Below are positions 5,863 to 31,706 of a stretch of DNA of 64,000 nt, piece after piece. Every line of letters starts with the position of its first letter. Position 1 is the stretch's first letter. Source of the stretch: an uncultured Bacilli bacterium (GTDB taxonomy: Bacteria > Bacillota_I > Bacilli_A > RF39 > UBA660); the NCBI GenBank assembly GCA_944331915.1, contig CALVIR010000003.1, positions 3,294 through 67,293 of the forward strand, written 5' to 3'. The notes under the pieces were generated by a model. The model was not told the DNA's origin and ran no database searches. It saw nothing but the letters and a program-made list of their open reading frames with translations. The translations under genes and the position numbers were made by a program.

Positions 5863-7452
5863 TTACTGTACTGTGTATGGATTATCCATAGTTCCAGAAC
5901 CACTTAAGATAACATCACTATTTAAATTGATAACGGGCCTTATTCCATCTGAATTCAATTGGGTACTAAAAATGAAAATAATATGCAAGGCATCTAATTG
6001 ATCCCAAATAGTAGGAACATTATTACGGAAATCCGCAGGAGTCATGGTATAGTACCTGAAATTATCAACACTAAGATAACTATCACTTGTAACCTCCAAA
6101 TTCTCTCCTGAAAAGATTAACTCATCGACTGTTATTAAACCAGCTTTAAGTTTATAACTACCACCATAACTTTCATTAGTATTAGGGCATATTAAAGTTG
6201 GAGAAATGTCTTCACCCTTCCCATCAACAAGTTGATGAATTCTATCATAACTACTAAAGCCCATATAATCTCTATTTATACCATAGTCTTTAACAGCAGT
6301 ATAACCACTACTATCACTACAAAATCTTCCTTCTATTACTTTATCATCATAAGCATTATTTTTTCCTAAAGTATTGTTATACCAGGTATCGACTTCTTTT
6401 TTAATAAAACTATCTACACCATTATCATAGGTATATCCTGTATATTTTGGATCATCATAGATTAAGTTATAAGGAGCAAATCCTATTATATATGAGGTAG
6501 CTAAGTCATTGTCATTAATACTTGTATTTGTCCCATTATAAATTAATCTTAGGCTACCATCACCATTTACTCTTACTATTTTCCAGTACATATCATCCCC
6601 ACTAGATGCTAACTTTATTTTATTACTTTCAGTACAATTAGAATTATATTCTTGACAACTCTCTAAACTTTGAAAATAACTATCATAATAATTATAGACA
6701 TAATAATCTTCATCATATTTACCAAATTTAATATTATTGTTGTCTATACTACCACGGAAATAATAACTTACTCCATCTTCATCGATGGCTTTGTATACTC
6801 CAGGTGTTATATAATTTGGATCAACGGTATCTGCGCCAAATTTCATACCGTTACTTGCATAATTAAACATATTATCTTTTGATACTTGAACTTTATTATC
6901 CACTAATATCTTATCTAAAGTACTAGCATTATACTTTACAAATAAATGGCCATTACTAGGTAGATTTAAATCATTATAATCTAGTCCCACACCTACTCCT
7001 AAAGGAATAGTAATTTCATTGTCACTAGTATTTCTTACTTTTATCTTATAAGTATTGCTACTACTAATTGTCCCTTGTTTTTCTAGATTAATTCCTGGTT
7101 CTTCTGGAGGAGTATTAAAATTAGCTTCTTCAAGGTAACCAAGTTCAATCTCAGAAGATAAATCACCTATATAATAAAAGTTAAATCTTGCTATTCTACT
7201 ATTAGGATTAGATAATGTAATAATAAATTCTTTAATACTATTGGCAGGAACTACAAGACTTTCAGTACTAACATTATCTACTTTTAAGTCATAACTTAGT
7301 GTTCCTGTGACAATACTTATGGCATTACTCTTTTCTTTTGTTACTGTAAACATTGCATAAGAAAAGTAACTTGTTAATAGTAGCAAAGTTATTAATATTA
7401 CACTTATTATATATATTTTTGATATCTTAGTATTCAATAATATTCTTTTCAT
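5863..7452 (-). CDS. surface-protein family member 1: TasA/SipW-cognate-like N-domain plus C-terminal 'GIRPVINL...GSGTMDNPY' domain
   Basis: N-terminus MKRILLNTKISKIY...SYFSYAMFTVTKEKSNAISIVTG resembles the SipW-cognate signal class. It shares the LGVGVGLDYNDLNLPSNGHLF core with the other copies. The C-terminal half is homologous to copy 4. Confidence 0.8.
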   Translation of the reverse strand: MKRILLNTKISKIYIISVILITLLLLTSYFSYAMFTVTKEKSNAISIVTGTLSYDLKVDNVSTESLVVPANSIKEFIITLSNPNSRIARFNFYYIGDLSSEIELGYLEEANFNTPPEEPGINLEKQGTISSSNTYKIKVRNTSDNEITIPLGVGVGLDYNDLNLPSNGHLFVKYNASTLDKILVDNKVQVSKDNMFNYASNGMKFGADTVDPNYITPGVYKAIDEDGVSYYFRGSIDNNNIKFGKYDEDYYVYNYYDSYFQSLESCQEYNSNCTESNKIKLASSGDDMYWKIVRVNGDGSLRLIYNGTNTSINDNDLATSYIIGFAPYNLIYDDPKYTGYTYDNGVDSFIKKEVDTWYNNTLGKNNAYDDKVIEGRFCSDSSGYTAVKDYGINRDYMGFSSYDRIHQLVDGKGEDISPTLICPNTNESYGGSYKLKAGLITVDELIFSGENLEVTSDSYLSVDNFRYYTMTPADFRNNVPTIWDQLDALHIIFIFSTQLNSDGIRPVINLNSDVILSGSGTMDNPYTVQ

Positions 7453-7690
7453 CTTCTACTCCTTATCAATTATCTTGACATTAATTATAGTTTACCCTAT
7501 TTCTTTAATTTTATGTGCTGGCTATATAACCAATTTACACCATGAAAAAGAACAGAATACTCCTATCCTGTCCTTATTGTATGATTAAAGAAGGTACTTA
7601 AGCTTCTAAAGTACCCCCCCCCCAGGTAACTTGTTGTAAACCGGATGTTCTTGTCATTTCATACCTTCTTTCTATTTTTTATTAACTTAA
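7453..7690 (-). promoter_or_regulatory. family leader cassette (copy 1): uORF with a C10/G10 tract (7614..7623), hairpin 7548..7575, plus an ~80-bp insert shared with copy 6
   Basis: A conserved ~160-bp element recurs 5' of all seven paralogs. The uORF MTRTSGLQQVTWGGGTLEA spans 7598..7657. Confidence 0.6.
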
Positions 7691-7723
7691 TAGTAACATA
7701 ATTAATGAATTATTACAATAGAT

Positions 7724-9493
7724 TTAATTACCGGCATTTAATACAAGACGAAAAGAACCATTATAACGACCTGAACTTATATAATTGTAATAATGAAAAA
7801 TTCCAGCATCAGTTTTGTCACCATAATAACCACCTCTAACAATCCAAGGGTATGCTGAATTGACCATTGTCCATGAATCGTTATACCAATTGTTAGTTTC
7901 ACTTAAAGCATGGGATAAACAAATTTTACCAGAACATGCGGTATTAGTATTGTCGCTTGTATATTGATCATAATATTTAGAGTCTATTATAATATTTTCC
8001 ATACCAATTCCGTTATAATTTGCCATTATAAATTCCCAGGCTCCACCTGACATATCATAGATTCCATAAATATTTCCAGTTGTTGAAGAGCCAGTACCAT
8101 TAATATCTATATCATAAGTATAATGACAACCATAATCAGTATTACCATTGCTTGGTTCTCCATAACTGCATCCAGTTATATATTGATCACTTTTATTTTG
8201 ATAAATCTCTTTATTAGCATTACTAAAATCGGTATTACCTAGTTTTCCATATCGACTTTGGGATAAGTAGGCTACTGTTGCCCATTCACTATTCTTCATC
8301 ATATGTGTATCTACACTACTACTAAATCCATATCTATTTCCTGTATCATTCATTTTTATTGATACATTAAAAGCATTACTTATACTTATATTTCTCCAAC
8401 TTATCACATTAGGTTTAATTATTGGATCTAAAGTAGTTGTATCTCCTCCTCCATATTCTGCATCAGGATTACTACTACTTGTTTCAAATTTTCCTACCCA
8501 GATTCCTGATAGTTCTTCATCACCAAAAGTAAAAGCATCTGGGGTATACCAACTATTACTATTCATTCCTTCATTTATATTATATCTAGCAGTTCCCTTT
8601 TCTTTGACATTTACTCTAACAAATTTTATATCTATCTCTCCTGGTAAAGCTTGAGTTGGAGAATTACTCTCACATGCTACTTGTCTACCATAGTAATTTG
8701 TTCCATCAATACTTGCTATAGAATAACTATATCGTGGTATCCATACCCACATAGTCTCTATATCATCCATATTTATTACAGTTCCTACACTAGCACTCTT
8801 ATAGCTCTCTCTTGTACTACTACTGACAGTTACAGCATTAGCCCATTTCTGTTCACTATAATTATACCAATCATTATTAGTATTATTTGTATCCGCTTTG
8901 ACCCAGTTGTTATCAACATATTTTACGGCAATCATATTACTATCTAACTCTGGAGCATTTACATTTTGACCATATTCTAAAAAAGAATGTTCATCAGTTG
9001 CTAAACTAAGATCATTATAATCAAGTCCCACACTTACTCCTAAAGTTATTGTTTGTTCCTTACTGCCATCATTATATATTACAATTTTATAAGTCTCAGT
9101 TGATCCTATTGTTCCAGTTATTTCTAGATTTACTCCAGTCTCTTCTGGTGGTTTTACACTTTCACAATCTATAATATAACCAGCTTCTACATTCGCATCT
9201 AAATTACCTTTATAATATAAATTAAATCTTGCTATTCTATTATTAGGATTAGTTAAAGTAACAAGAAATGTTTTTTCTTCTTTTGGTCCTATGACTAATT
9301 TATCTGAACTTACTCCATCTACTTTTAAGTCATAAGTTAGATTTCCTGTTACAATACTTATCGCATTACTTTTTTCTTTTGTTACTGTAAACATCGCATA
9401 GGAAAAGTAACTTGCTAATAGTAAGAAACTAATTAATACTGTACATAAAACATATATCTTTGATATCTTAGTATTTAATAATATTCTTCTCAT
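7724..9493 (-). CDS. surface-protein family member 2: TasA-like N-domain plus FGE-sulfatase-like C-domain
   Basis: The C-terminus carries FGE/SUMF1-like motifs: GIYDMSGGAWEF (compare GLYNxxGNxWEW), RGGYYGD (compare KGGSY) and SFRLV (compare GFRCA). Confidence 0.8.
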   Translation of the reverse strand: MRRILLNTKISKIYVLCTVLISFLLLASYFSYAMFTVTKEKSNAISIVTGNLTYDLKVDGVSSDKLVIGPKEEKTFLVTLTNPNNRIARFNLYYKGNLDANVEAGYIIDCESVKPPEETGVNLEITGTIGSTETYKIVIYNDGSKEQTITLGVSVGLDYNDLSLATDEHSFLEYGQNVNAPELDSNMIAVKYVDNNWVKADTNNTNNDWYNYSEQKWANAVTVSSSTRESYKSASVGTVINMDDIETMWVWIPRYSYSIASIDGTNYYGRQVACESNSPTQALPGEIDIKFVRVNVKEKGTARYNINEGMNSNSWYTPDAFTFGDEELSGIWVGKFETSSSNPDAEYGGGDTTTLDPIIKPNVISWRNISISNAFNVSIKMNDTGNRYGFSSSVDTHMMKNSEWATVAYLSQSRYGKLGNTDFSNANKEIYQNKSDQYITGCSYGEPSNGNTDYGCHYTYDIDINGTGSSTTGNIYGIYDMSGGAWEFIMANYNGIGMENIIIDSKYYDQYTSDNTNTACSGKICLSHALSETNNWYNDSWTMVNSAYPWIVRGGYYGDKTDAGIFHYYNYISSGRYNGSFRLVLNAGN

Positions 9494-9650
9494 TATTTAC
9501 TCCCTTCATTTAACCACCAAAAAGAACAGAATACTACTATCCTGTTCTTATTATATGATTAAAGAAGGTACTTAAGCTTCTAAAGTACCCCCCCCCAGGT
9601 AACCATTTGTAAACGGGTGTTAGTTCTCATTTTCATACCTTCTTTCTACT
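9494..9650 (-). promoter_or_regulatory. family leader cassette (copy 2): C9 tract 9588..9596
   Basis: Identical to the copy 3 cassette. Confidence 0.6.
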
Positions 9651-9683
9651 CTAACTAAAAGTTAACATACAAATAGCAAAATG

Positions 9684-11459
9684 TCAATCATTAATTACGT
9701 TCATCACTAAACGGTAAGCGGCAAGATCATAACCAGTACCATTACCATGATCAAAATAGAAGACACCAGCTCCTGTACTATAATTATAGTTATCACCACG
9801 ACCTATCCATGGATATTCTATGTTCAAATTATTTTGATAATCTCCATACCAGCCTGCTGTTTCTGATAAATCATGGGATAAACATTCTTTTCCATTGCAA
9901 GCAGTAAAAATGTCACTACTTGTATATTTATCATAGTATTTAGATTCCGGCATTGATGTGAAACCAGAGTTACTTACTATTTCATTATAGTTACCCATGA
10001 CATATTCCCAGGCTCCACCAGACATATCATATACTCCATAGATAGTTCCTGTTGTTGAAGCTCCTGTTCCATCGATATTTATATCATAAGTATAATGACA
10101 ACCATAATCAGTATTTCCATTAGACGGTGCTCCATAACTGCATCCAGTTATATATTGATTACTCTTATTTTGATATACCTCTTTATTAGCATTACTAAAA
10201 TCTGTATTGCCTAACTTTCCATATTTACTTTGAGATAGATACGCTACTACGCCCCATTCACTATTCTTCATCATATGCGTATCTACATTACTACTAAAAC
10301 CATATCGATTACCATTATCATTCATTTTTAAACTTACGTTAAAAGCGGTCGATATGTATATGTTTCTCCAACTAGTAACATTAGGTTTTATCATTGGATC
10401 TAAAGCAGTTGTATTCCCTCCTCCATATTCTGTATCAGGATTACTACTACTTGTTTCAAACTTTCCTACCCAAATTCCACTTAACTCTTCATCACCAAAG
10501 GTAAAGGCATCTGGGGTATACCAACTTGTTATTTCTTCTCCTACTTTATATTTAGCACTACATCTATCTTTTTCTCCACTTGCAACAAATTTTACATCTA
10601 TTTCTCCTGGTAATTCTTGAGTAGGTACTGTTGTTAAATATTCTCCTTGTTTTCCATAATAATTGGTTCCATCAACACTACCTATAGAATAACTATATCT
10701 TGGTATCCATACCCACATGGTTTCTATATCATTCATATTTATTACGGTTCCGACATTAGCACTCTTATAACTTGCTCTTGTACTACTACTGACAGTCACA
10801 GCATTAGCCCATTTCTGTGCATCATAGTTATACCAGTCATTATTAGTATTGCTTGTATCTGCTTTAACCCAATTATTGTTTTCATATTTTACTGCTATCA
10901 TATTAGTATCTAATTCTGGAGCATTTGGTTCATTTGTATACTCCGCAAATAAATATCCATTACTTGGTAAACTTAAATCATTATAATCTAGTCCCACATT
11001 TACTCCTAAAGTTATAGTCTGTTCTTGGTTACCATTATTTGATATTACTAATTTATAAGTCTCACTTGATCCTACGGCATTTACTTTCTCTAGATTTACT
11101 CCACTTTCTTCTGGTGGTGTTTGGCTCTCACAATCTATAATATAACCTGCTTCTATATTTGAATCTAAATTACCTTTATAATATAAATTAAATCTTGCTA
11201 ATCTATTATTAGGATTAGTTAATGTAATAGTAAAGGTCTTACTTTCCTTTGGTCCTAGGACTAATTTATCTGTACTTACGCCATCTACTTTTAAGTCATA
11301 AGTTAAATTTCCTGTTACAATACTTATCGCATTACTTTTTTCTTTTGTTACTGTAAACATCGCATAGGAAAAGTAACTTGCTAATAGTAAGAAACTAATT
11401 AATACTGTACATAAAACATATATCTTTGATATCTTAGTATTTAATAATATTCTTCTCAT
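9684..11459 (-). CDS. surface-protein family member 3 (FGE-like C-domain)
   Basis: A close paralog of copy 2. The first ~90 nt and the 5' leader are identical at the nucleotide level. Confidence 0.8.
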   Translation of the reverse strand: MRRILLNTKISKIYVLCTVLISFLLLASYFSYAMFTVTKEKSNAISIVTGNLTYDLKVDGVSTDKLVLGPKESKTFTITLTNPNNRLARFNLYYKGNLDSNIEAGYIIDCESQTPPEESGVNLEKVNAVGSSETYKLVISNNGNQEQTITLGVNVGLDYNDLSLPSNGYLFAEYTNEPNAPELDTNMIAVKYENNNWVKADTSNTNNDWYNYDAQKWANAVTVSSSTRASYKSANVGTVINMNDIETMWVWIPRYSYSIGSVDGTNYYGKQGEYLTTVPTQELPGEIDVKFVASGEKDRCSAKYKVGEEITSWYTPDAFTFGDEELSGIWVGKFETSSSNPDTEYGGGNTTALDPMIKPNVTSWRNIYISTAFNVSLKMNDNGNRYGFSSNVDTHMMKNSEWGVVAYLSQSKYGKLGNTDFSNANKEVYQNKSNQYITGCSYGAPSNGNTDYGCHYTYDINIDGTGASTTGTIYGVYDMSGGAWEYVMGNYNEIVSNSGFTSMPESKYYDKYTSSDIFTACNGKECLSHDLSETAGWYGDYQNNLNIEYPWIGRGDNYNYSTGAGVFYFDHGNGTGYDLAAYRLVMNVIND

Positions 11460-11625
11460 TATTTACTCCCTTCATTTAACCACCAAAAAGAACAGAATAC
11501 TACTATCCTGTTCTTATTATATGATTAAAGAAGGTACTTAAGCTTCTAAAGTACCCCCCCCCAGGTAACCATTTGTAAACGGGTGTTAGTTCTCATTTTC
11601 ATACCTTCTTTCTATTATTATTTAT
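11460..11625 (-). promoter_or_regulatory. family leader cassette (copy 3): uORF 11546..11602 (MKMRTNTRLQMVTWGGVL), C9 tract 11554..11562, hairpin 11488..11515 followed by U5
   Basis: On the coding strand an AGAAGG RBS lies 7 nt before the second ATG. The G-tract sits inside the uORF. The hairpin is AAGAACAG-N12-CTGTTCTT followed by TTTTT, then the main RBS AAGGGAG. Confidence 0.6.
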
Positions 11626-11660
11626 TTATATATTAACATATTTTTAACTGATTAACAATA

Positions 11661-12155
11661 TTATCTATGTTTATTATTAGTATTACTAATTCCTAAAGCT
11701 GTAAAATAGTCAGTGATACTATGAAAGGAACTGATATCATAAGTATCATAATCGTTAACACAATCTATAATAGTTGTTTCTAAATTATCAAGGTTTATCT
11801 CTTCATTATAAATGTTTTTTAAACTTTCTTTTTGACTTTCTGTTACATCGTGTAAGGTAGGACTTACTATATGAATAGCATTATGATTAAGACCATCTTT
11901 TCCTATGTAGCTTATATCTAAAATAGTGATAAGATTAGCAAAAGAAGATATCTTATCTAAAGATGAGGTAAATTCTTCATCAGTTGTTAAAGTAAGACCA
12001 TGTAAACACCACCAAGCACTAGGATATATATCATTAGTAAATAAAGCATTATGACTATATTTTTCTTCGTTATCTCTTTCTTCAAGAGAAATATTTTCTT
12101 CATTACTTGTTTTTATAGAACCATCTGGTCCAATTAACGTAATTAAATGTTTCAT
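11661..12155 (-). CDS. hypothetical protein
   Basis: A 164-aa ORF I cannot assign to any family. Confidence 0.5.
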   Translation of the reverse strand: MKHLITLIGPDGSIKTSNEENISLEERDNEEKYSHNALFTNDIYPSAWWCLHGLTLTTDEEFTSSLDKISSFANLITILDISYIGKDGLNHNAIHIVSPTLHDVTESQKESLKNIYNEEINLDNLETTIIDCVNDYDTYDISSFHSITDYFTALGISNTNNKHR

Positions 12156-12156
12156 T

Positions 12157-12810
12157 TTAAAAACCTACTCTTAATATTTCAAAGCTAGCATTATTACTAA
12201 CTCCATAACTTAGAGCTTCACTGCTAGTTTGAAAAAGTAAATCAAACATAAATTTTTGATCTTTTCCAATATCAGGTCCACGATCTAAGACAATACCTAT
12301 AAAATCTCCTACATTAGTATTACTAACTTTAACTATAGTACCAAAAGGATATTCTCTACCACCAGATAAAATTCTTATTTCACCATATTCTTGATCAAGA
12401 TAAGTTATAGTATCAGTAATACAGTAACCATAAGCAGTGTGGGTACCAATATCAGCACCATAACCACTCATTCTTCCAGTAAATATCTCATTATTAGTAT
12501 TAACATTCTCATCTTGATTAGTAGTTTCTTCATTAGGTTTAAGCTCTTCTTGATAGTTTATATTTTTATCAACTGACTCCACTATCTCGTCAATTGGCTC
12601 TTCTTCGATAATATTCTCTTCTTCTATTGGTTCTATTTCCTCAACAGGAATAGATTCTATTATAGGTTCTTCTTTAGTTATAGTTTCACTCTTTACATAA
12701 GTTATTTTGTTATTTACATCTATATTTGTAATAGTAGGACTGGTTGTACTGACAAGTAAACAGCATCCCATAAAGAGTATAGCGTTTATAATATAAACAG
12801 TTATTTTCAT
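12157..12810 (-). CDS. lipoprotein with C-terminal 3D (YuiC/MltA-like) domain
   Basis: Lipobox-like FMGC signal. The C-terminus GYGADIGTHTAYGYCITDT...GTIVKV...GIVLDRGPDIG is typical of 3D/DPBB cell-wall proteins. Confidence 0.55.
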   Translation of the reverse strand: MKITVYIINAILFMGCCLLVSTTSPTITNIDVNNKITYVKSETITKEEPIIESIPVEEIEPIEEENIIEEEPIDEIVESVDKNINYQEELKPNEETTNQDENVNTNNEIFTGRMSGYGADIGTHTAYGYCITDTITYLDQEYGEIRILSGGREYPFGTIVKVSNTNVGDFIGIVLDRGPDIGKDQKFMFDLLFQTSSEALSYGVSNNASFEILRVGF

Positions 12811-12881
12811 ATTTATCCCTCAATATTATGATAACATATAGACACTTATAAAACAACTAATTGACATTTATTAGGTGTAAA

Positions 12882-14294
12882 CTAATGTTCATAATATTTT
12901 TTTATAACATCATAGTCATTATATGGTAAATACTTATCTCCAATAGCCATATAATCATCTCTACCCTTACCAGCAATTAAAATAATATCTTTTGGTTTAG
13001 CTAAAGATAAAGCTTTATAGATAGCTTCCTCACGATTGATAATTCTCTCATAGTTAGTCATTTTAGACTCGCCTATTAAATCATCAATAATCTTATTAGG
13101 ATCTTCATTTCTTGGATCATCCATAGTAAAAACAACGTAATCAGAATTTTCTAAAACTACTTTACCCATGAATGGCCTTTTTTCTCTTTCTCTACCACCT
13201 GCACTACCAGTGACGGTAATTATTCTTCCTTCTTTAACCGTATTTAAGAATGTTAAGATATTAGCTAGAGCATCTTCAGTATGAGCATAATCTAGTATAA
13301 CAGTATACTCATCAGTAAAAGGCATTATCTCCATTCTACCTTCTATTTGCTTTATATTTTTTACTCTTGTAATTATATCATTAAAAGTTAGTCCTTTACA
13401 CAATAAGGTAATAATAGCAGCAGCTAAGTTTTCAACATTAAAGCTTCCAAGGAGTGGAGAAATAACTTTATAATCTTGATCTTGATATTTAAACGTAATT
13501 ATTGTTTCATTTCTTTTTAAGTCATAATCTTTAATCATTAAAGTATCATCTTCATTATAACCATAAGTTACAATATTACCTTTAGCGATAGATTTAAATT
13601 CCTCAAAATATAAATCATTACTATTTAAAATAGAAAAGCCAGTATCTTTGACTTGTTTAAATAATTCTTTTTTACAGCTTACATAGTTTTCAATAGTTTT
13701 ATGAACATTTAAATGGTCCTTAGTAACGTTTGTAAGAATAGCAATGTCATATTTAATATCATCTAAACGATGACGAAAGAAGGCTTCACTTGATGCTTCC
13801 ATACAAATAGTTGAACAACCATTATCAAGAAATTCTTTAAAGTATTTATAAAGTCTATCTACATCTGGAGTAGTGTTACGCATGCTGAAGTGTTTACCTT
13901 TATATTTTCTGCCATTAGTTCCAATATAAGCGGTATCATCACCTAGTAACATATAGATTAACTCTGCAACAGTAGTTTTGCCATTAGTACCAGTAACACC
14001 TATCATATAGGCTTTTTCATAAGGATAATCATAGAATTTAGCACATAGTTTTCTTAATTCTAAATTAGTATCTTTAACTTTAATAAGAGGAACACTTTTA
14101 GCTGGAATATCTTTACTGACAATAATAGCACTAGCACCATTATTAATCGCTTCATCAATAAAATCATGACGATCCGCAGTAACACCCATGGTACAAACAA
14201 AAATATCACCAGGCTCTATATCTTTTGAGTTTATCTTTATTCCCTTAATTATTCTATCATCAGAAACATCATATAATTCACTTAATTTTTTCAT
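12882..14294 (-). CDS. murE: UDP-N-acetylmuramoyl-tripeptide synthetase (MurE-type Mur ligase)
   Basis: A 470-aa protein with the GVTGTNGKTT P-loop, Mur ligase middle and C-terminal architecture, and a DDPRNED motif. Confidence 0.8.
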   Translation of the reverse strand: MKKLSELYDVSDDRIIKGIKINSKDIEPGDIFVCTMGVTADRHDFIDEAINNGASAIIVSKDIPAKSVPLIKVKDTNLELRKLCAKFYDYPYEKAYMIGVTGTNGKTTVAELIYMLLGDDTAYIGTNGRKYKGKHFSMRNTTPDVDRLYKYFKEFLDNGCSTICMEASSEAFFRHRLDDIKYDIAILTNVTKDHLNVHKTIENYVSCKKELFKQVKDTGFSILNSNDLYFEEFKSIAKGNIVTYGYNEDDTLMIKDYDLKRNETIITFKYQDQDYKVISPLLGSFNVENLAAAIITLLCKGLTFNDIITRVKNIKQIEGRMEIMPFTDEYTVILDYAHTEDALANILTFLNTVKEGRIITVTGSAGGREREKRPFMGKVVLENSDYVVFTMDDPRNEDPNKIIDDLIGESKMTNYERIINREEAIYKALSLAKPKDIILIAGKGRDDYMAIGDKYLPYNDYDVIKKYYEH

Positions 14295-14335
14295 TTACAT
14301 CACCTACTATAACATATATAAATTTATTTAAATAG

Positions 14336-15040
14336 TTACTTATCTATCTCAAACAAGAAATCTTCATGACGATAAAATTGTTCTTCTTCATATCTAGAGT
14401 AAATAGCAAAAGGACGATAAAAGTGTAATTCATTATTAACAACATATAAAAAGACATTATCACTATATGAGTCTATACCACGAAGATCTAAGAAACAGTC
14501 ATAATTACATTCAGCTTCTGTAAAATACATACTTTCTAACTCTTGTTTATAATAATTAGTAAATTCTTGTTCTAGAGTATTAACAATATCACTTTCAGTA
14601 ATAGAAAACTCTTTTAGCAAATCAGTATCTGTTACTAAATTACCAGTATCAAGATTAAAGTTATAGGTTCTAATAATAGTTTTAGGATAGTTGTTATCGT
14701 TTATATCATTATAGATATAGAAAGTAGCTAAGGATAGATAATTATCATTAAGATCAACTTGATAAGTAAACATACTTTCATAGTCAAGAGCATTATTAAA
14801 GTCTTGTTCTATTTCTTCATTAACTTTCTTAGCATCATCACTACTAAATTTAACATTTGGTAAGTATGAGGTAAAGTTAGTAGTATCATCTTTATGTTCT
14901 TCTTTAATACTAAAATAGGTATCTATACTATTACTTGTATTACTAGTAGCTAAAACGGAAATAAGAATGATAATAACAGTACCTATTATTAAGAATAAAA
15001 TAATTTTTATATATGGTTTATATTGTTCTAATTCCATCAT
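14336..15040 (-). CDS. hypothetical membrane-anchored protein
   Basis: A 234-aa ORF with an N-terminal TM segment and a D/E/Y/N-rich remainder. Confidence 0.5.
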   Translation of the reverse strand: MMELEQYKPYIKIILFLIIGTVIIILISVLATSNTSNSIDTYFSIKEEHKDDTTNFTSYLPNVKFSSDDAKKVNEEIEQDFNNALDYESMFTYQVDLNDNYLSLATFYIYNDINDNNYPKTIIRTYNFNLDTGNLVTDTDLLKEFSITESDIVNTLEQEFTNYYKQELESMYFTEAECNYDCFLDLRGIDSYSDNVFLYVVNNELHFYRPFAIYSRYEEEQFYRHEDFLFEIDK

Positions 15041-15041
15041 A

Positions 15042-15434: not shown

Positions 15435-15448
15435 ATATTTACCTCCTC

Positions 15449-16417: not shown

Positions 16418-16683
16418 CCTTTTAATACTAATCTATTTATATAATAACAAGTTTTTAGACTTTTTTAAAGTGTTTTAAGTAAATCAAAAGAAATTGATAA
16501 GACTAAACTTTATCAATTTCTATTATTTACGTAATTATTAATATAGGACTTTTAACTTTATTCTAAGTCAAGAGATATCTATATTATCTTTGTAAGCCTT
16601 AGCCGACTAAACACGGTGACACTAAATTACTAGCATTATTAGGACTCTTGGTGAGCACCGTATCTTATACAGTTTACCTCTTT

Positions 16684-18402
16684 CTATCCTAGGACATAAG
16701 GTGAACTTACAGTTCCATCACCACTAGTGAAACCGGTATCAGTTAACACATTAATAACCGGACGTACGGCGTAGTTGTTGTTACTGCTACCGCTTCCTAT
16801 TCCTAGATAATCACCACTCATAGCCCACACTGAAACCATACTATCTCCGAAGTCGCACGGCGTCATAGTCCAATAATCTGCTCCATTTTCTCCTGGATTC
16901 AAGTAACTATCTGTTGTCACTCCTGGATTTTCTCCTGCTAATACTAGTTCATCTGCTGTTATTAAGCCTGCTTTTAATCTATAACTACCTCCATAGCTTT
17001 CACTTATTGATGGACATTTTAACGTTGGAGCATTTGCTTTGGCATAATTAGTCATACTTTGCCCTAATCTGTCATAACTTGAAAAAAAATACCAATCACC
17101 CATATCTGGAAAGTCATAATCTGTATCTTGTTTATATCCGCTACTATCACTACAAAATCTTCCTAATATTACATATCTATCATAATTTTGATTACTTCCT
17201 AAAGTATTATTATACCAAGTATCTACCTCTTTTTTAACAAAAGAGTCTGTTCCATTATCATAGGTATATCCTGCATATTTTTGATCATTATAATACTCTA
17301 AATTATATAATGACATTCCTACAAAGTTGGCATCATCTATAGAACTATCTGTTGCTGTAGGATTTGTTCCGTTATAGATTAATCTTAATGAACCATCTCC
17401 ATTTACTCTTATTATTTTCCAGTACATCTTATCTCCTGCTGATGCTAATTTTACTCTATTACTCTCATTACAACTTGAATAATGTTCTTGACAACTTTCT
17501 AAGCTTTGAAAATACTGATATCCAGAATTATATACATAATATACATAATAATCACTTTGATACTCTCCAAACTGAACATTATTATTAGTGACATTTCCTC
17601 TAAAGTAGTAACTTATGCCATCTTCATCTTCGGCTTGAAATAGACCATTTGTTACATATTCTGGATTTGTACTTGGTCCATTTTCCATATCAAAGTATCC
17701 ACCATTACTAGCATAATTGAACATATTAGTTTTTTCTTCTTGTAACTCGTTATTAGCTAAAATTGTTTGTACAGTCTCTGGGACATATTTATCTCCATCT
17801 TTACCATAAACATTTATTTGGACACTAAATTGTAAATTGCCTCCATCTCCTTGAGGATTATATTCTTCTGTTACATACATTCTAAGACGATAATTATTAG
17901 TTTCACTTGAGTTCATACTACTTGTATATAAACTCATTTCTCCTGCTGGTCTTCCTGTATAATTGTTAGCATTAGCTTCTTCACTATATGTCTCTGGTAA
18001 CATTAAAGCTTCTTCACTACCATCACTGTTTAATTTAGTTAGATATAACTTGATATTAGAGCCATCTATCTTTCTATCGCTTGTCGTTATATCTTTTGCA
18101 CTGATTTCATAGTTGATATTAACATTACCAGTGATATTACTTGATATCGTAAAATCAAAGTATTCTCCCTCTGTTAATCTAACTGTACCTGTTTTATCTG
18201 TTGTTGGTAATGCCCCACTCATATTTATAATATTACTAGTTTCAGTATAAGTCATCGTAATTGCTCCACTTGTAATACTGTTAACAGTATCTCCTGTATC
18301 TGTATAACTAAAGGCAGCATAACTTACTCCTACTACTGCTACAATCATTATCAAGATTAAACCTAAAATTATTATTTTTTCTTTTCTTTTTTCCATAAAC
18401 AC
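16684..18402 (-). CDS. surface-protein family member 4 ('GVRPVINV...GDGTVSSPY' C-domain type)
   Basis: N-terminus ...GVSYAAFSYTDTGDTVNSITSGAITMTY is a very close match to the SipW-cognate signal class. The C-terminal half is homologous to copy 1. Confidence 0.8.
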   Translation of the reverse strand: MFMEKRKEKIIILGLILIMIVAVVGVSYAAFSYTDTGDTVNSITSGAITMTYTETSNIINMSGALPTTDKTGTVRLTEGEYFDFTISSNITGNVNINYEISAKDITTSDRKIDGSNIKLYLTKLNSDGSEEALMLPETYSEEANANNYTGRPAGEMSLYTSSMNSSETNNYRLRMYVTEEYNPQGDGGNLQFSVQINVYGKDGDKYVPETVQTILANNELQEEKTNMFNYASNGGYFDMENGPSTNPEYVTNGLFQAEDEDGISYYFRGNVTNNNVQFGEYQSDYYVYYVYNSGYQYFQSLESCQEHYSSCNESNRVKLASAGDKMYWKIIRVNGDGSLRLIYNGTNPTATDSSIDDANFVGMSLYNLEYYNDQKYAGYTYDNGTDSFVKKEVDTWYNNTLGSNQNYDRYVILGRFCSDSSGYKQDTDYDFPDMGDWYFFSSYDRLGQSMTNYAKANAPTLKCPSISESYGGSYRLKAGLITADELVLAGENPGVTTDSYLNPGENGADYWTMTPCDFGDSMVSVWAMSGDYLGIGSGSSNNNYAVRPVINVLTDTGFTSGDGTVSSPYVLG

Positions 18403-18560
18403 TTACTCCTTTCAATTTAACCATAAAAAAGAACAGAATTTTTTTATCCTGCTCTTATTCCATGATTAAAGAAAGTACTTAAGCTTCTAAAGTACCCCCC
18501 CCCAGGTAACTTGTTGTAAACGGGTGTTAGTTCTCATTTTCATACCTTCTTTCTATCTTT
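18403..18560 (-). promoter_or_regulatory. family leader cassette (copy 4): C9 tract 18495..18503
   Basis: Same element. The uORF is MKMRTNTRLQQVTWGGVL. Confidence 0.6.
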
Positions 18561-18605
18561 TAATTAATTATACTCTATTTTATAGTATTATTTCAACTAA
18601 ATTTT

Positions 18606-18650: not shown

Positions 18651-18655
18651 ATTAA

Positions 18656-22401: not shown

Positions 22402-24177
22402 TTATTCTATACAAAGAATAGTTCTAAATGAGTTATCTATACGCACGCCACCTAAACTATATGTAGCACCATAAGAAAACAGACCAGAATCAACTTGATC
22501 ATAGTAGTATCCACCTCTTACTAACCAGGGATACTCATTATTTATCATATTATTAATATCTTTATACCATTCTGAAGTTTCTGATAAGGCATGGCTTAAA
22601 CATTCTTCTCCATTGCATGCTGTTAATATGTTATCTGTTATATATTTATCATAATACTTTGACTCGGGAAAAATGGTAAAATCAGCATTACCTAATATAT
22701 CATTATAATTACCCATAACATATTCCCAGGCTCCTCCTGATGTATCGTATATTCCATAAATATTGCCGGTTGTTGAAGCTCCGGTTCCATTTATATCTAT
22801 GTCATATGTGTATTGACATCCATAATCGGTATTGCTATTTGATGGCATTCCATAACTACACCCAGTTATATACTCTTCACTTTTATTTTGATATATTTCT
22901 TTATTAGCATTACTAAAATTTGTATTACCTAACTTTCCATATTTACTTTGGGATAGATATGTTACAGCTCCCCACTCACTGTTTTTCATCATATGGGTGT
23001 CGATAGTACTACTAAATCCATATCTATTTCCTTCATCATTCATCTTTAAACTTACATTAAAAGCATTACTTACATTTATACATCTCCAACTTGTTACATT
23101 TGGTTTTATCATCGGATCTAACTCAGTTGTATTCCCTCCTCCATATTCTAATGAAGGATTAGAACTACTTGTCTCAAACTTGCCTACCCAGATTCCACTT
23201 AGTTCCTCATCTCCGAATGTAAAGGCATCTGGGGTATAATACTCTTTTGCTCCAGTTGTCGTTATGTATTTTGCATTTCCCCTATCTTTTATTTTATCAC
23301 TTACAAATCTTATATCTATTTCTCCTGGTAATTCTTTAGTTGGTTCACTTTCTAAATAACAGCCTTGCTTTCCATAATAATTAGTTCCATCAACGCTTGC
23401 AATACTATAACTATATCTTGGTATCCATACCCACATTGTTTCAATATCATTCATATTTACTATGGTTCCTACAGAAGCATTTTTATAATTTTCTCTTGTT
23501 GAACTACTTACTGTTACCGCATTAGCCCATTTTTGCTCATTATAGTTATACCAATCATTTTTAGTGTTACTTGTATCAGCTTTAACCCAATTGTTATCTA
23601 CATATTTTACAGCTATCATATTAGTATCTAACTCTGGTGCATTTGGTTCATTTACATATTCTTTAAATAAATGTCCATTACTTGGCAAACTTAAATCATT
23701 ATAATCAAGTCCTACTTGTACCCCTAATTCTATCACTATTTCATTACTAGAATTATTTTCTACCATTATTTTATATTTATTACTACTACCTATACTTTTA
23801 CTTGCTTCTAAGTTTACTCCAGTTTCTTCTGGTAAATTAGTAGTTTCACAATCTTTTATATAACCAGCATTTACCTCTGTTGGTATTTCATTTAAGTAAT
23901 AAAAATTAAACCTAGCTATTCGATTATTGGGATTTGTTAATGTAATAATAAATTCTTCAGCACTATTGGCTTTAACAACGAGGTTTTGACTAGAATTGCC
24001 ATCTACTTTTAAATCATAAGTTAAATTACCTGTGACAATACTTATGGCATTACTTTTCTCCTTACTTACTGTAAACATGGCATAGGAAAAGTAACTTGCT
24101 AATAGTAATAAAGTAATTAATACTGTGCCTAAGATATATATCTTTGATATTTTAGTACTTAATAATATTTTCTTCAT
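22402..24177 (-). CDS. surface-protein family member 5 (FGE-like C-domain)
   Basis: A paralog of copies 2 and 3. Confidence 0.8.
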   Translation of the reverse strand: MKKILLSTKISKIYILGTVLITLLLLASYFSYAMFTVSKEKSNAISIVTGNLTYDLKVDGNSSQNLVVKANSAEEFIITLTNPNNRIARFNFYYLNEIPTEVNAGYIKDCETTNLPEETGVNLEASKSIGSSNKYKIMVENNSSNEIVIELGVQVGLDYNDLSLPSNGHLFKEYVNEPNAPELDTNMIAVKYVDNNWVKADTSNTKNDWYNYNEQKWANAVTVSSSTRENYKNASVGTIVNMNDIETMWVWIPRYSYSIASVDGTNYYGKQGCYLESEPTKELPGEIDIRFVSDKIKDRGNAKYITTTGAKEYYTPDAFTFGDEELSGIWVGKFETSSSNPSLEYGGGNTTELDPMIKPNVTSWRCINVSNAFNVSLKMNDEGNRYGFSSTIDTHMMKNSEWGAVTYLSQSKYGKLGNTNFSNANKEIYQNKSEEYITGCSYGMPSNSNTDYGCQYTYDIDINGTGASTTGNIYGIYDTSGGAWEYVMGNYNDILGNADFTIFPESKYYDKYITDNILTACNGEECLSHALSETSEWYKDINNMINNEYPWLVRGGYYYDQVDSGLFSYGATYSLGGVRIDNSFRTILCIE

Positions 24178-24330
24178 CTCTTACTCCCTTTATTTAACCA
24201 CAAAAAAGAACAGAATACCTCTATCCTGCTCTATTCCATAATTAAAGAAAGTACTTAAATGTCTAAAGTACCCCCCCCCGGTAACTTGTTGTAAACTTGA
24301 TACTCTTGCCATTTTCATACCTTCTTTCTA
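24178..24330 (-). promoter_or_regulatory. family leader cassette (copy 5): C9 tract 24271..24279, lacking the flanking A, giving a longer uORF
   Basis: Same element; here cccccccccggtaac replaces cccccccccaggtaac. Confidence 0.55.
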
Positions 24331-25543: not shown

Positions 25544-25591
25544 TCCTATTCTTTATAACTATGTTAACATAAAAGTCAAAAAAAAGAAATA

Positions 25592-27118: not shown

Positions 27119-27142
27119 AGAACCACCCTTACTATTTAATTA

Positions 27143-27706: not shown

Positions 27707-29560
27707 TTATGGCAAGGCCAATGTGAATGGATTTTGAAGGGTTCCGTCACCTGATGTTATTATTACATTTTGTTTTAGATTTAGAGATGGGCGAACACCA
27801 TTAGCAACCGTGGAACTAAAGTAGTCCATACGACCATAGTAGCTCACACTCCACACATAAGACGTACTGTATGGTGTTAAAGTCCAGTAATGTGTATTAT
27901 TATCATTACTATCAAATTGCCCTGCCATTAATTCGCCATAACGTAATAATCCTACTTTTGCTGTAGTTATACTTGATGTTAATGTAGTACCAGTTGTATC
28001 TGTATACTTCGCTAGTTTATAGTTAGTTCCTGCTCCTATTGTTCCAAGATACCAGGTTGTGTTATCTTCTATTATTGATATATCTTCATCTGTTAGATAA
28101 TTATTATCTGTATTCAAATAATCATTATTCAAAAATGAACCAATTGTAGTACTACTAGAATATTCAATACCGTTACCAAAAGTTGAGGAAATAAAACTAC
28201 CATCTTTTTTTAATGGTTCAGCACTAGTTATTTTTGTTCCTGTTCCATTTTCATGGTTTACTATCCGGTACAAATTGTTTTCTCCTGTTCCAAACCTTAT
28301 GTACTCGCCACTATATCTACTTGAAAGTAGTGTTCCTAATAGATTAGTATCATCATCTCCATTAAGTCGATATGGATTATCTATTGTCCCATCACCGCCG
28401 GCAATTTTAACGCTAGATTTTAGATTTATGGATGGTCTAACGCCATTCGTATATACAGTACTATAGCCTCCCGTACGGCCATGGTCCACATTCCAAATGT
28501 AAGATGCATCACTTGGTGTTAATGTCCACCAATTTATGACATTATTTAAATAGCCATTAATAGCTGTTGTGTCACTATAACTCATGGTATATTCGTAAAT
28601 ATTTAATAGTCCAACAGGATCAGTTACCAAAGTTGTTTCTGTTGGTTTCGTTGTCTCATCTGTCATCATAGTTGCATTCCATATACTATCCATTTTGATA
28701 AATTTCTCTGGTTCTCTTAAATTACCTAAGAAACCATCTACACTTATATCATTTAACCATTCTTCCATATAACTTCCTTCAAATGATGCACTACCACTTG
28801 AATAATTAATGGCACTTATATTCCATTGTGTCACTAATTTAACACTATTATCACTTGGATCTATACTTACGGCTCTCCATAGTTTTCCGCTATACCAAAT
28901 ATAGTTATTTGGATCTGTTCCTGTTATAAATGTCTGATCAGGATCACTTGTATTTATCGCTCCATTTTCTCCTACTCCATCTAAAAGCACCTCTGCAACA
29001 GTCTGTCTTTCTTGACTTACCTCTACTCTTAACTTTCCTTTAAATACTTGTCCTGAATAGTTCCCATCTACCTCATCGGTTATCCAGATGTTTAAACTAT
29101 ATGTATTTGTCTCTCTTCCTTCTATTGTCCCACTATCTAAAACTCTATTAGGATTAGTTCCAATCCTTGTTAATAGGGTTGCTCCACTATCAGTACCATT
29201 TTTATTAAGGTTATACTTTAAAAAATTATCATCTATTCTTGTATCAGTACTATCTATCTCCATATCATCTAAATAAATTGTATAATCTACCGCTTTATCA
29301 CCATTATTTACTAAAGTAAATGTTGATGGTGTTAAACTCATCCCTTTGCTATCACTTACTCCTATAGCAGTATCTAAATTTATTCCTTCACTAGTTTCAT
29401 TCAATATTAAATCTAAAGTATCTATCTTTACTATTTGATCAGAGCCATTTAATGTTGTACTAAGATAAGCATAGGTTAATCCTAATACTGCTAGTAAGAC
29501 TATTAAGATACTTATTACAATTACTATAGTTTTTCTATTTTGTTTATTTTCTTTCATCAC
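27707..29560 (-). CDS. surface-protein family member 6: divergent signal, two tandem 'WWTLTP...GVRPS(I/L)NLK...GDGT..NP(Y/F)' repeats
   Basis: The N-terminus LTYAYLSTTLNGSDQIVKIDTLDLIL is still SipW-cognate-like. It has the same 5' leader cassette. Confidence 0.8.
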   Translation of the reverse strand: MMKENKQNRKTIVIVISILIVLLAVLGLTYAYLSTTLNGSDQIVKIDTLDLILNETSEGINLDTAIGVSDSKGMSLTPSTFTLVNNGDKAVDYTIYLDDMEIDSTDTRIDDNFLKYNLNKNGTDSGATLLTRIGTNPNRVLDSGTIEGRETNTYSLNIWITDEVDGNYSGQVFKGKLRVEVSQERQTVAEVLLDGVGENGAINTSDPDQTFITGTDPNNYIWYSGKLWRAVSIDPSDNSVKLVTQWNISAINYSSGSASFEGSYMEEWLNDISVDGFLGNLREPEKFIKMDSIWNATMMTDETTKPTETTLVTDPVGLLNIYEYTMSYSDTTAINGYLNNVINWWTLTPSDASYIWNVDHGRTGGYSTVYTNGVRPSINLKSSVKIAGGDGTIDNPYRLNGDDDTNLLGTLLSSRYSGEYIRFGTGENNLYRIVNHENGTGTKITSAEPLKKDGSFISSTFGNGIEYSSSTTIGSFLNNDYLNTDNNYLTDEDISIIEDNTTWYLGTIGAGTNYKLAKYTDTTGTTLTSSITTAKVGLLRYGELMAGQFDSNDNNTHYWTLTPYSTSYVWSVSYYGRMDYFSSTVANGVRPSLNLKQNVIITSGDGTLQNPFTLALP

Positions 29561-29780
29561 AGTTCACTCCATTATCAATTATTTTGACATTAATTATAGT
29601 TTACCCTATTTTTTTAATTTTATGTGCTGGCTATATAACCAGTTTACATGCTAAAAAAGAACAGAATACTCCTATCCTGTCCTTATTGTATGATGAAAGA
29701 AAGTACTTAAATGTCTAAAGTACCCCCCCCCAGGTAACTTGTTGTAAACGGGTGTTAATTCTCATTTTCATACCTTCTTT
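29561..29780 (-). promoter_or_regulatory. family leader cassette (copy 6): C9 tract 29723..29731, plus the ~80-bp insert shared with copy 1
   Basis: The uORF is MKMRINTRLQQVTWGGVL. Confidence 0.6.
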
Positions 29781-29879
29781 CTATCTTTAATTTAATACAA
29801 GTTTAACATAAATTATAATTAACAACAAGATATTTTTATCTTCAAATTAAAGAGAAAAAAATATTTTAACTCAATTTAT

Positions 29880-31706
29880 TTAGGGTGCAATGTCAAGTAT
29901 GAAAGGTTGTTCCTTAGTCCCAATTCCACCAGTGATGATGACGTTAGATTTTAAGTTGAGAGATGGTTTTACTCCGCTTATATTAGACACACTTATATAA
30001 TTTGCAATATTAATAGTATCAATTAAGTAAACAGTAGATTGATCATATGGTGTTAATGTCCAATATGATGTATTATTCTCATATCTATCGAATTGTCCAG
30101 CCATTAACTCTCCTAATCTTAATAACCCAACTTTTGCGTTTATACTTGTAGCATATTCTGACATATTAGTATCTTTATATTTGGCTAATTTGTATGATGC
30201 TCCGTTATCTACAGTACCTAAATACCAAGTAGTACTATCTTCTATCATATCAATATAGTTTTCGCCTACATAATTTGTTAAATATTCGTTATTTAGAAAA
30301 TTGCCTATTGTATTTGTATCTGAATAATATACACTATCTCCAAAAGTTATGGTTTTAAATGTTTCATTTTCTTTTAAAGGTATAGCACTAGTTATTTTTG
30401 TTAATCCTTCACTTTCATGGCTTACTATTCGATATAGATTATTGTCACCCGTTCCAAATATTATATATTCACCACTATACCTAGTATTAAGTTTTGTTCC
30501 ATTTAGATTAGTATCATTATCCCCTTCTAGTCTATAGGGATTTTCTTCACTCCCATCCCCATCTACTATTTTTATGTTAGATTTTAGATTTATTGATGGT
30601 CTTACCCCTCGTTTTCCTAAAGATGAAAGAGCAGCAACGAAACCATTATTGTATATATAGTAAAGATTTGATAAATTATATGGAGTTATAAGAAAACTAG
30701 TAGTTCCATTATTTAGATATCCTCTAGTAATATGAGTTTCATTATAACTTGTTGTATACTCATAATAATTTAATAATCCCACAGCATCTTCTACTATTGT
30801 TCCTCCATCTTCTTCATTAGAAGGTTTACTAGCATCAGTCATTGTACTAGCATTCCACTTAGCATCAGTCACTATAAAACTTTGATAATCTCTTAAATTT
30901 CCTAAAAAACCATCTTCACTAGTATCATTTAGCCATTCTTCCATATAGCTTCCTTCAAAGGCACTACTATCATTATCATAAGAAATGGCACTTATAGGCC
31001 ACTGGGTTACTAATTTAACTGTTTTTTCTTCATTATTAACACTAACTGCTCTCCATAACTTTCCACTATACCAGACATAGTTATTAGGGTATTGTCCTGT
31101 TGTAAATGTATCCTCTCCATCATCATAAATATTATCTTTACTTATATTACTTAATACAACAGTTCCTATTTCTCCCTTAGATATTATTTCTTCAAATAAA
31201 TGTCCATTTTCTGGTAGACTTAAATCATTATAATCTAGTCCTACTTGCACTCCTAAAATAACTGTTACACTACTTTCTGAACTATTTATTACTCTTATTG
31301 TGTAAGTATTACTTGAACCTATGGTATCTATCTTTTCTAAGTTTATTCCTTTCTCAGCTGGCAATGTATTTGTTCCATCTTCTACTATATATCCCACTTT
31401 GACATGAGATGGTAGGTCTCCTAGATAATAAAAATTAAATCTAGCTAAACGATTATTAGGATTATTTAAAGTAATGGTAAAATCTTTTACTGAATTTGCT
31501 TCAACTGTTAAAGTATTAGATTCAACTCCATCTATTAATAATTCATAAGTTAAGTTACCTGTTACTATACTTATAGCATTACTTTTTTCTTTGGTTACTG
31601 TAAACATAGCATAGGAATAATAACCTCCTATAACTAGAAATGTTAATATAATCATCACTAACATATAAATCTTACTAAATTTTGTTTCTAATAATATTTT
31701 TTTCAT
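29880..31706 (-). CDS. surface-protein family member 7: family N-domain fused to copy-6-type repeat C-domain (mosaic)
   Basis: The N-terminal 170 aa resemble copies 1-5. The C-terminal 430 aa are collinear with copy 6 (YWTLTPYDQS...GVKPSLNLKSNVIITGGIGTKEQPF). Confidence 0.8.
   Translation of the reverse strand: MKKILLETKFSKIYMLVMIILTFLVIGGYYSYAMFTVTKEKSNAISIVTGNLTYELLIDGVESNTLTVEANSVKDFTITLNNPNNRLARFNFYYLGDLPSHVKVGYIVEDGTNTLPAEKGINLEKIDTIGSSNTYTIRVINSSESSVTVILGVQVGLDYNDLSLPENGHLFEEIISKGEIGTVVLSNISKDNIYDDGEDTFTTGQYPNNYVWYSGKLWRAVSVNNEEKTVKLVTQWPISAISYDNDSSAFEGSYMEEWLNDTSEDGFLGNLRDYQSFIVTDAKWNASTMTDASKPSNEEDGGTIVEDAVGLLNYYEYTTSYNETHITRGYLNNGTTSFLITPYNLSNLYYIYNNGFVAALSSLGKRGVRPSINLKSNIKIVDGDGSEENPYRLEGDNDTNLNGTKLNTRYSGEYIIFGTGDNNLYRIVSHESEGLTKITSAIPLKENETFKTITFGDSVYYSDTNTIGNFLNNEYLTNYVGENYIDMIEDSTTWYLGTVDNGASYKLAKYKDTNMSEYATSINAKVGLLRLGELMAGQFDRYENNTSYWTLTPYDQSTVYLIDTINIANYISVSNISGVKPSLNLKSNVIITGGIGTKEQPFILDIAP

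Follow-up and report, generated by a model that had tools for sequence, protein, structure and literature searches.

Poly-G contingency loci and phase-variable surface families are known from Campylobacter jejuni (surface genes), Treponema pallidum (tpr), Neisseria (opa, pilC) and Mycoplasma (vlp, vsa). Attenuators in which a leader open reading frame (ORF) runs into an intrinsic terminator are exemplified by pyrBI of Escherichia coli, and a poly-G antiterminator by pyrG of Bacillus subtilis. Phase-variable leaders that act by DNA inversion are described for cwpV and flgB of Clostridioides difficile and for fim of E. coli (PMC12360218). Here we analyze a 64-kb stretch of contig CALVIR010000003.1 (this whole stretch is called the window below), which carries seven minus-strand paralogs, numbered c1 to c7 by rising window coordinate. 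From its sequence, the region appears to encode several members of a large family of exported surface proteins with a modular build, in an uncultured gut bacterium assigned to the Bacilli. Each of the seven genes is preceded by a conserved leader with a poly-G tract, which on balance we take to be a slipped-strand, leader-ORF-dependent attenuator that probably drives phase variation of alternative lectin-like adhesins.

With the contingency loci, the window shares a hypermutable homopolymer for each member of a surface family, a polymorphic tract length and the possibility of independent switching. Here, however, neither the structural gene nor a promoter spacer holds the tract, which sits in a separate leader ORF that is followed by an intrinsic terminator; the host, moreover, is an uncultured bacterium of the Bacillota. 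As in pyrBI and pyrG, a leader ORF with a Shine-Dalgarno (SD) sequence and an intrinsic terminator precede the gene, a run of G can pair with a C+U-rich (CU) tract and, in the mechanism that we propose, entry of a ribosome into the hairpin serves as the antitermination step. Yet a frame change inherited with the DNA would act as the signal in place of the supply of nucleotides or amino acids, and the G run, unlike that of pyrG, is encoded in the genome and does not stem from reiterative transcription. The inversion systems resemble the proposed one in their stochastic ON/OFF switching in a 5' leader via conditional transcription termination, whereas here homopolymer length, acting through translation of the leader ORF, would take the place of site-specific inversion. 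Our literature searches returned no description of an attenuator with a homopolymer in a leader ORF.

The leader had gone unmentioned in the preliminary description of this DNA and came to light by repeat analysis of the upstream regions. It spans ~125 nt (~160 nt including a conserved stretch to the start codon), precedes all seven genes and shows ~90% nucleotide identity; the alignment of the seven upstream regions holds ~100 invariant columns, though c4 and c6 share only ~20% protein identity with the other copies. Its parts are, in order, a promoter-like site, AGAAAGAAGG, an ATG 6-8 nt further on, a 16-codon ORF, a hairpin, a strong hairpin with U tract, and the SD of the gene (Table 1). 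The 16-codon ORF (MRTNTRLQQVTWGGVL*) holds a tract of nine G (G9), which is G10 in c1, while c5 lacks the T before G9. These tracts are the sole runs of at least seven G on either strand of the window, giving 22 overlapping matches against 0.53 expected. Terminator and promoter were also recognized by an independent scan. As expected of an attenuator, a translatable ORF and an intrinsic terminator lie between promoter and gene, and the ORF can overlap the terminator. None of the known Rfam families matches the leader: Rfam yields two tRNAs only in the window, and the best sub-threshold match of the c4 leader reaches 22 bits against a threshold of 80. The long-form spacer seen upstream of c1 and c6 is also present in L005 and L008 (L005, L008, L014 and so on being our labels for comparison loci fetched from other assemblies), and its near-palindrome reads CTGGTTATATAACCAG in other loci.

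The most telling property of the leader is its frame logic. Anchoring the frame on GTT-ACC-TGG, we compared 22 distinct leaders from four lineages. In all 22, exactly one frame runs on for ~20 codons and stops 8-10 nt before the 3' arm of the terminator, i.e., in its loop, and the other two frames stop 4-16 nt past the tract. By our own estimate, an open frame of ~21 codons at 29% G+C is expected in roughly one in six cases; given this expectation, it is unlikely by chance that the frame is kept in four lineages with different spacers. In the window, c5 is the sole copy with its leader ORF in the read-through frame, because the T before G9 is missing; its stop lies 13 nt past the hairpin, with 3 nt left to the c5 SD. 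The read-through frame is found at c5 (window, L012 and L013), in L021 and in the truncated L010, and gene callers annotate the 40-codon leader ORF of c5 in L012 and L013. The leader at the c5 slot is non-canonical in both strains: in another strain (L029, positions 2879-3000, and L011), the U tract is replaced and a hairpin of ~20 bp abuts the SD.

The tract also varies in length. Tracts of G6, G7, G8, G9 and G10 occur among paralogs with identical flanks. Differences at one and the same locus, as read from consensus assemblies of which some are low-coverage or long-read, are seen for c1 (G10 in three assemblies, G9 in eight), for c6 and c7 (G9 in two assemblies, G10 in one, with identical proteins) and between L021 (G8) and L022 (G9).

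Beyond the seven copies, an nhmmer search placed the leader before every family gene in more than 30 loci and nowhere else, be it in the window, in other contigs of a metagenome-assembled genome of Candidatus Onthousia faecavium or in other samples. This uncultured chicken-gut member of the Bacilli is the source of the closest database proteins. In public collections, pattern scans located leaders of exactly the O. faecavium type in O. faecavium itself and three metagenome contigs only; diverged leaders were reached through protein homologues and not through scans with the leader pattern. Three further lineages, one of them with genes for sporulation (SpoVA, CotZ), encode family proteins 55-68% identical to their window counterparts. 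In the leaders of these lineages, CGTTTACAAnAnGTTACCTG(8-10), UUACUUUCUUU and the terminator are preserved, the last with a compensatory change from C-G to U-A, and the sequence in between differs in content and length. Further observations bear on translation of the leader. In the short-form leaders of the O. faecavium lineage, an SD of the form GAAGG stands 6-8 nt before the leader ATG. Indels upstream of the tract leave the frame of the leader ORF intact, as does a 6-nt insertion in L008. A long-form leader peptide, MMVYPKELVY..RLQ.VTWGG, is found both in O. faecavium (L030) and in a distant lineage (L024), the two copies differing by a synonymous TAT/TAC exchange.

We thus propose the following mechanism. 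Each gene would form a transcription unit of its own, composed of a promoter, a leader with strong SD and an ORF of ~16 codons, a hairpin, a terminator and the SD of the gene, and in the hairpin the G tract could pair with the invariant CUUUCUUU tract. Slipped-strand mispairing would alter the length of the G tract and thereby shift the frame of the leader ORF. In two of the three frames, the ribosome would leave 4-16 nt after the G tract; the terminator would then form, possibly along with a pairing of the CU tract with the SD, and keep the gene OFF or at a low level. The third frame would let the ribosome cover the 5' arm and loop of the terminator (at c5, it would stop just before the SD), which would prevent the hairpin and turn the gene ON. 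Since the paralogs would switch independently, a population could show different combinations of adhesin heads. In its most specific form, which we put forward tentatively, the leader may be a previously undescribed 'frame-counting' attenuator, in which a hypermutable G tract decides on ribosome invasion of the terminator and thereby on a heritable, reversible, gene-by-gene ON/OFF choice of lectin-headed proteins in several uncultured gut Bacillota lineages. That, in addition to such a frame-counting attenuator, a conserved strand after the signal peptide lets the proteins polymerize by TasA-like strand exchange seems less likely.

The consensus fold of the leaders retains the terminator and has the G tract paired with CYUUCUUU, and 96.8% of cells are paired compared to 55-73% in slid controls. 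In the minimum free energy (MFE) fold of the c4 leader, the CU tract pairs with the SD region of the gene; as this sequestration of the SD appears in one MFE fold and is poorly conserved across the copies, we keep it as a possibility only.

As to the proteins, all seven minus-strand genes of the preliminary description were found as ORFs at their positions, with probable starts slightly downstream for c4 (ATG at 18396, 6 nt downstream, 570 aa) and c6 (ATG at 29557, 3 nt downstream, 616 aa) according to gene callers and database proteins. In a six-frame scan of the window, [ST][YF]A.F[ST], the N-terminal motif, occurs exactly seven times, once in each. Pairwise identities divide the N-modules into a type A (c1, c2, c3, c5 and c7) and a type B (c4 and c6). 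Whole type-A modules are 55-82% identical and their first 55 residues 67-100%, c2 and c3 being the same there; type B is ~20% identical to type A, and the c4 and c6 modules share 27%. The N-termini, described before as near-identical, are therefore so only in the five type-A copies. By identity, the C-terminal parts (C-parts) fall into the classes c2/c3/c5 (71-73%), c1/c4 (53%) and c6/c7 (56%). Combining both, we find A+X (c1), A+FGE (c2, c3 and c5), B+X (c4), B with two DUF6273 (c6) and A with two DUF6273 (c7), where X denotes the C-part class of c1 and c4. Because the groupings of N-modules and C-parts are incongruent, the modules have truly been shuffled, and the description of c7 as a mosaic is borne out. 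The family is no assembly artefact of a single gene, a concern raised with its first description, because the identical gene set recurs in identical order in several independent ENA assemblies.

Each protein would begin with a basic and hydrophobic N-terminal export signal that ends in S-Y-A, followed by a conserved, strand-like segment of 15-20 residues (MFTVTKEKSNAISIVTG.L or variants), a β-sandwich 'stalk' of one of two types, and one interchangeable head (FGE-like, DUF6273-like or two DUF6273). The heads containing DUF6273 (PF19789) are the best defined: c6 and c7 score 37.0 and 27.6 bits, above the Pfam gathering threshold of 23.5 bits, with two stretches each. In c1 and c4, there is no Pfam match, yet their last 70-105 residues resemble the ends of the DUF6273 repeats: a hidden Markov model (HMM) of the c1/c4-type C-part picks up every such end in c6 and c7, at domain E values between 4e-10 and 1e-5, which confirms the earlier view of a motif present once in c1 and c4 and twice in c6 and c7. 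For c2, c3 and c5, the proposed FGE-sulfatase-like domain holds as a remote similarity, with all scores below the Pfam gathering score of PF03781 (23.3 bits): c2 reaches 16.1 bits (E 0.009), c3 14.7 bits (E 0.025) and c5 has no match. Weak matches to this domain were found in 8 of 19 homologues (best E 1.9e-4), covering profile positions ~170-226 alone. Against the PDB, a single-sequence search with the FGE-type C-part matched the uncharacterized 5vf4 (E 0.0018), and a profile search found nothing.

FGE-type domains belong to the same fold class as C-type lectin. On the basis of models, DUF6273 is described as C-type-lectin-like, as receptor-binding and as a target of diversity-generating retroelements (DGRs) in phages (PMC10743442). 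For these reasons, all three types of C-part may be ligand-binding heads. The phage 'tentaclins' with DUF6273 from that work are comparable to the window proteins in that c6 and c7 carry two DUF6273 and that c1 and c4 share the C-terminal end W-TLTP...GVRP..N...GDGT..NPY. They differ in that the window proteins are chromosomal and bacterial and would vary by choice of paralog and replacement of cassettes, not by targeted mutagenesis. Indeed, no reverse-transcriptase-like ORF was noticed among the ORF translations of the window, where no search with reverse transcriptase models was made, and there is no repeat resembling a template/variable repeat pair beyond those of the paralogs; mutagenesis of the heads by a DGR is thus disfavored.

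The N-module is widespread. A profile built from the seven copies found 1038 cluster representatives among 1.84 billion proteins. Among the matches listed, the module lies at or near the N-terminus in all but few cases (fragments and one repeat protein), with 0-1000 residues after it. In 94 diverse members, the appended domains comprise DUF6273, BspA-type leucine-rich repeats, ALK/LTK glycine-rich, DUF285/PARCEL, ricin, LamG, F5/8C, dockerin and others, kinds that are typical of surface and adhesin proteins. The module family, with more than 1000 sequence clusters, is without a Pfam or NCBIfam model and hence unannotated, and its profile has no meaningful sequence match in the PDB. In one representative of 1412 residues (P0218), the center of the profile (positions 44-108) matches 11 times in tandem, which indicates that the sandwich also occurs as an internal repeat.

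The two stalk types are alike solely in the signal peptide and the conserved strand (hhalign, 51-87 columns), and the two B subtypes, c4 and c6, are clearly homologous (hhalign E 6e-22). An AlphaFold2 model of type A (c2 residues 28-182, 96 sequences) is a confident eight-strand sandwich (predicted local distance difference test score, pLDDT, 88.5), whose first 20 residues (SYFSYAMFTVTKEKSNAISI) have low pLDDT in this monomer prediction. In a Foldseek search of the PDB, this model matched nothing at E<=1e-3, the best hit being a FixG-related immunoglobulin (Ig)-like domain, and type A thus models as a generic PapD/MSP-like Ig sandwich. The type-B model of c4 (pLDDT 74) gave jelly-roll matches.

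Several observations weigh against a phase-variable, leader-ORF-dependent attenuator. GTTACCTGGG is conserved at the nucleotide level including third codon positions, which suggests a constraint on RNA or DNA beyond coding. The pairing of G and CU tracts lacks support from covariation because these columns never vary, and covariation is modest overall. Some of the length differences come from low-coverage or long-read assemblies (L009-L011, L021-L026), where homopolymer errors are common, and in L027 two tracts are G10 together, possibly an assembly effect. At nearly every locus, the commonest tract is G9, which sets an early-stop frame; 'OFF by default' is therefore assumed, and the switch could have the opposite polarity. 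The extra ~90-nt spacer of c1 and c6 holds a possible second promoter; it could serve as an operator and second promoter that bypasses the attenuator. In B. subtilis, transcription and translation are reportedly uncoupled, which, if general in the Bacillota, would disfavor ribosome-mediated transcription attenuation and make a translational version more likely. The lectin-like role, in turn, draws on weak FGE matches and on the DUF6273 literature, and for the C-part in the c4 model, Foldseek found nothing significant in the PDB. Part of this would be expected if the leader were a conventional cis-regulatory RNA, either an attenuator responding to a protein or ligand or an anti-SD switch, in which the G tract is purely structural and pairs with the CU tract in competition with a CU:SD pairing, its length differences are incidental or sequencing noise, and the family is co-regulated by a trans factor and not stochastically: the G tract and the CU tract are both invariant and complementary, the MFE fold of the c4 leader has the CU tract paired with the SD region of the gene and not with the G tract, the nucleotide conservation covers third codon positions, and G9 prevails almost everywhere. 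We nonetheless consider such an RNA unlikely, as it leaves unexplained why, in four lineages whose spacers differ in length, a single frame invariably has its stop in the terminator loop, and why SD and ATG are conserved and the 6-nt insertion keeps the frame; moreover, same-locus length differences recur in Illumina assemblies, and no Rfam family comes near its threshold. That the conservation of the leader merely reflects recent duplication or gene conversion of promoter-proximal DNA, with no regulatory function, is highly improbable. To be sure, c2 and c3 are 99% identical over the leader and ~180 nt at the start of the coding sequence, compared to 80-91% in blocks further downstream, which suggests 5' gene conversion, and recombination within leaders is suggested by those of L006 and L009, which agree in the 5' half but not in the 3' half. 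Yet the leader is kept beside proteins only 20% identical to each other, and also in lineages whose family proteins have diverged to 55-68% identity, with compensatory changes in the terminator.

Another view, close to that of the preliminary description, concerns the proteins: they would be subunits of the TasA/camelysin class, exported by a SipW-type peptidase, whose freed N-terminal strand polymerizes by donor-strand exchange into fibers that show variable heads. For the comparison, the TasA sequence was checked against 8aur and 5of1, and a TasA/CalY family alignment was built for hhalign. The register of the motif does fit TasA, with a signal ending in aromatic residue plus Ala ([YW]A-x-F), ~10 residues and then (S/T)G-x-L, and both have a β-rich body. 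For type B alone, the similarity extends, marginally, to profile and fold: the c6 type matches the TasA family with E 3.1e-5 over 79 columns and the c4 type with E 3.9e-4; c4 also matches single TasA with E 1.1e-3 over 188 columns, including a last strand resembling QG..LQFS, and the TasA fiber 8aur_A ranks third in Foldseek with the c4 model (E 2.3e-3, probability 0.94, template modeling score 0.31). The low pLDDT of the conserved 20 post-signal residues in the monomer is what a strand docking in trans would show, which is compatible with such fibers but is not evidence for them. However, these similarities drop once the signal peptides are removed (c6 type E 5e-4 over 44 columns, c4 type E 0.07), and type A, to which five copies belong, is modeled as a complete Ig-like sandwich and reaches only a non-significant E of 0.2-0.4 against TasA in hhalign, the TasA/CalY family alignment giving 0.2-0.3. 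True TasA homologues all carry Peptidase_M73 (PF12389), whereas this family has no match at E<=1 in the seven window proteins and none at E<=0.01 in the 94 representatives. The assignment to the SipW-cognate signal class likewise fails beyond the motif, since TIGR04088 has no NCBIfam match at E<=1 in these 101 proteins. As already noted in the preliminary description, no SipW-type signal peptidase is visible: a signal-peptidase motif (SGSM.P-type) is absent from all six frames of the window, and the precomputed Pfam lists hold no S24/S26 peptidase gene within 10 kb of family genes in any fetched locus. S-Y-A is compatible with an ordinary signal peptidase I site. The window family also differs from TasA/CalY in the large C-terminal heads fused to the module and in its genes, which are dispersed among housekeeping genes and form no operon of the tapA-sipW-tasA type. 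We thus reject TasA membership for type A on HMM, profile-profile and fold grounds, see at most a distant TasA-like ancestry for type B, and judge fiber subunits of this class to be rather improbable, even though TasA itself assembles by donor-strand exchange (PMC9674648). What stands of the surface-antigen family proposed before is a real multigene family of apparently exported surface proteins with a common N-terminal module, swapped C-terminal modules and a content that varies between strains; its TasA/SipW part is weak.

Strain comparisons indicate how this content varies. The slot between ileS and a C39-like peptidase gene is occupied in other strains by a gene for a 597-aa type-A protein instead of c4 (20.8% identity). 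Strains with the replaced c4 slot also lack the c2/c3 duplication, and one strain has a shortened c1. A faster point divergence of the family genes was not seen, c1 being 99.8% and c2 93.5% identical between strains as compared to 87% for MurE. As the orthologs are no more diverged than their neighbors, diversification seems to proceed by cassette replacement, duplication and recombination. Between window positions 3220-14294 and L014, the genes on the c1 side (VTT, deacetylase, HlyIII, a 356-aa ORF and c1) are 99-100% identical and MurE and its neighbors only 76-93%; this mosaic pattern points to a recombination breakpoint near c2/c1.

If a leader-ORF-dependent switch of this kind operates, it would represent a new wiring of phase variation, in which a leader ORF and a terminator serve to read out slippage in a simple sequence. 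Moreover, uncultured gut Bacilli with small genomes would then run large surface-variation programs comparable to those of Mycoplasma, Campylobacter and Treponema. Metagenomic reads could then directly show the states of the G tract and so document, in situ, which adhesins a population expresses in the host gut. Both the N-module family and the leader motif absent from Rfam could become annotation models.

Table 1. Positions of the family genes, their leaders and associated elements in the window (SD, Shine-Dalgarno sequence; ORF, open reading frame).
Feature	Position	Strand	Description	Length
c1	5863..7452	-	type-A N-module and X-type C-part with one DUF6273-like C-terminal end	529 aa
c2	7724..9493	-	type-A N-module and FGE-sulfatase-like C-part	589 aa
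c3	9684..11459	-	tandem paralog of c2; type-A N-module and FGE-like C-part	591 aa
c4	16684..18402	-	type-B (weakly TasA-like) N-module and X-type C-part	572 aa
c5	22402..24177	-	type-A N-module and FGE-like C-part	591 aa
c6	27707..29560	-	type-B N-module and two DUF6273 domains	617 aa
c7	29880..31706	-	type-A N-module and two DUF6273 domains (mosaic: type-A N-module, c6-type C-part)	608 aa
c1 leader	7545..7668	-	SD; leader ORF 7657..7598 (MTRTSGLQQVTWGGGTLEA*); G10 7614..7623; hairpin; terminator 7577..7545	
c2 leader	9519..9642	-	leader ORF 9630..9580; G9 9588..9596; terminator 9551..9519	
c3 leader	11485..11608	-	leader ORF 11596..11546; G9 11554..11562; terminator 11517..11485	
c4 leader	18425..18549	-	leader ORF 18537..18487 (MRTNTRLQQVTWGGVL*); G9 18495..18503; terminator 18458..18425	
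c5 leader	24202..24324	-	leader ORF 24312..24190 (40 codons); G9 24271..24279, preceding T missing; terminator 24235..24202	
c6 leader	29653..29777	-	leader ORF 29765..29715; G9 29723..29731; terminator 29686..29653	
c7 leader	31731..31855	-	leader ORF 31843..31793; G9 31801..31809; terminator 31764..31731	
Promoter-like site, c4	18567..18596	-	TTGAAA-18-TATAAT directly 5' of leader; best match (11/12) in 5800-19000	
Long-form spacer, c1	7453..7544	-	terminator to start codon; near-palindrome TTGGTTATATAGCCAG and TATAAT-like box	
Long-form spacer, c6	29561..29652	-	same form as c1 spacer	

The neighborhood of the family genes holds further features. A gene for a membrane-anchored cysteine peptidase resembling Peptidase_C39_2/C70 lies directly downstream of c4 (15449-16417, minus strand), with conserved synteny and 93.5% identity between strains. 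Immediately upstream of c7 (31972-34048, minus strand) are genes for an HtrA-like trypsin/PDZ serine protease and an Abi_2 abortive-infection protein. In a distant lineage (L024-L026, positions 8762-9649), genes for a tyrosine recombinase (Phage_integrase), a DDE transposase and a ToxN toxin are found just upstream of a c4-type gene with its leader. In L029 (5225-5795), a RelB/ParE toxin-antitoxin pair that is absent from the window lies between the c5-slot gene and ileS. Elsewhere in the window, an ORF on the plus strand (49464-49922) was recognized by eye from its translation as IS200-like (Y1 transposase-like), and the two tRNA genes found by Rfam are adjacent to each other (58933-59093, plus strand).

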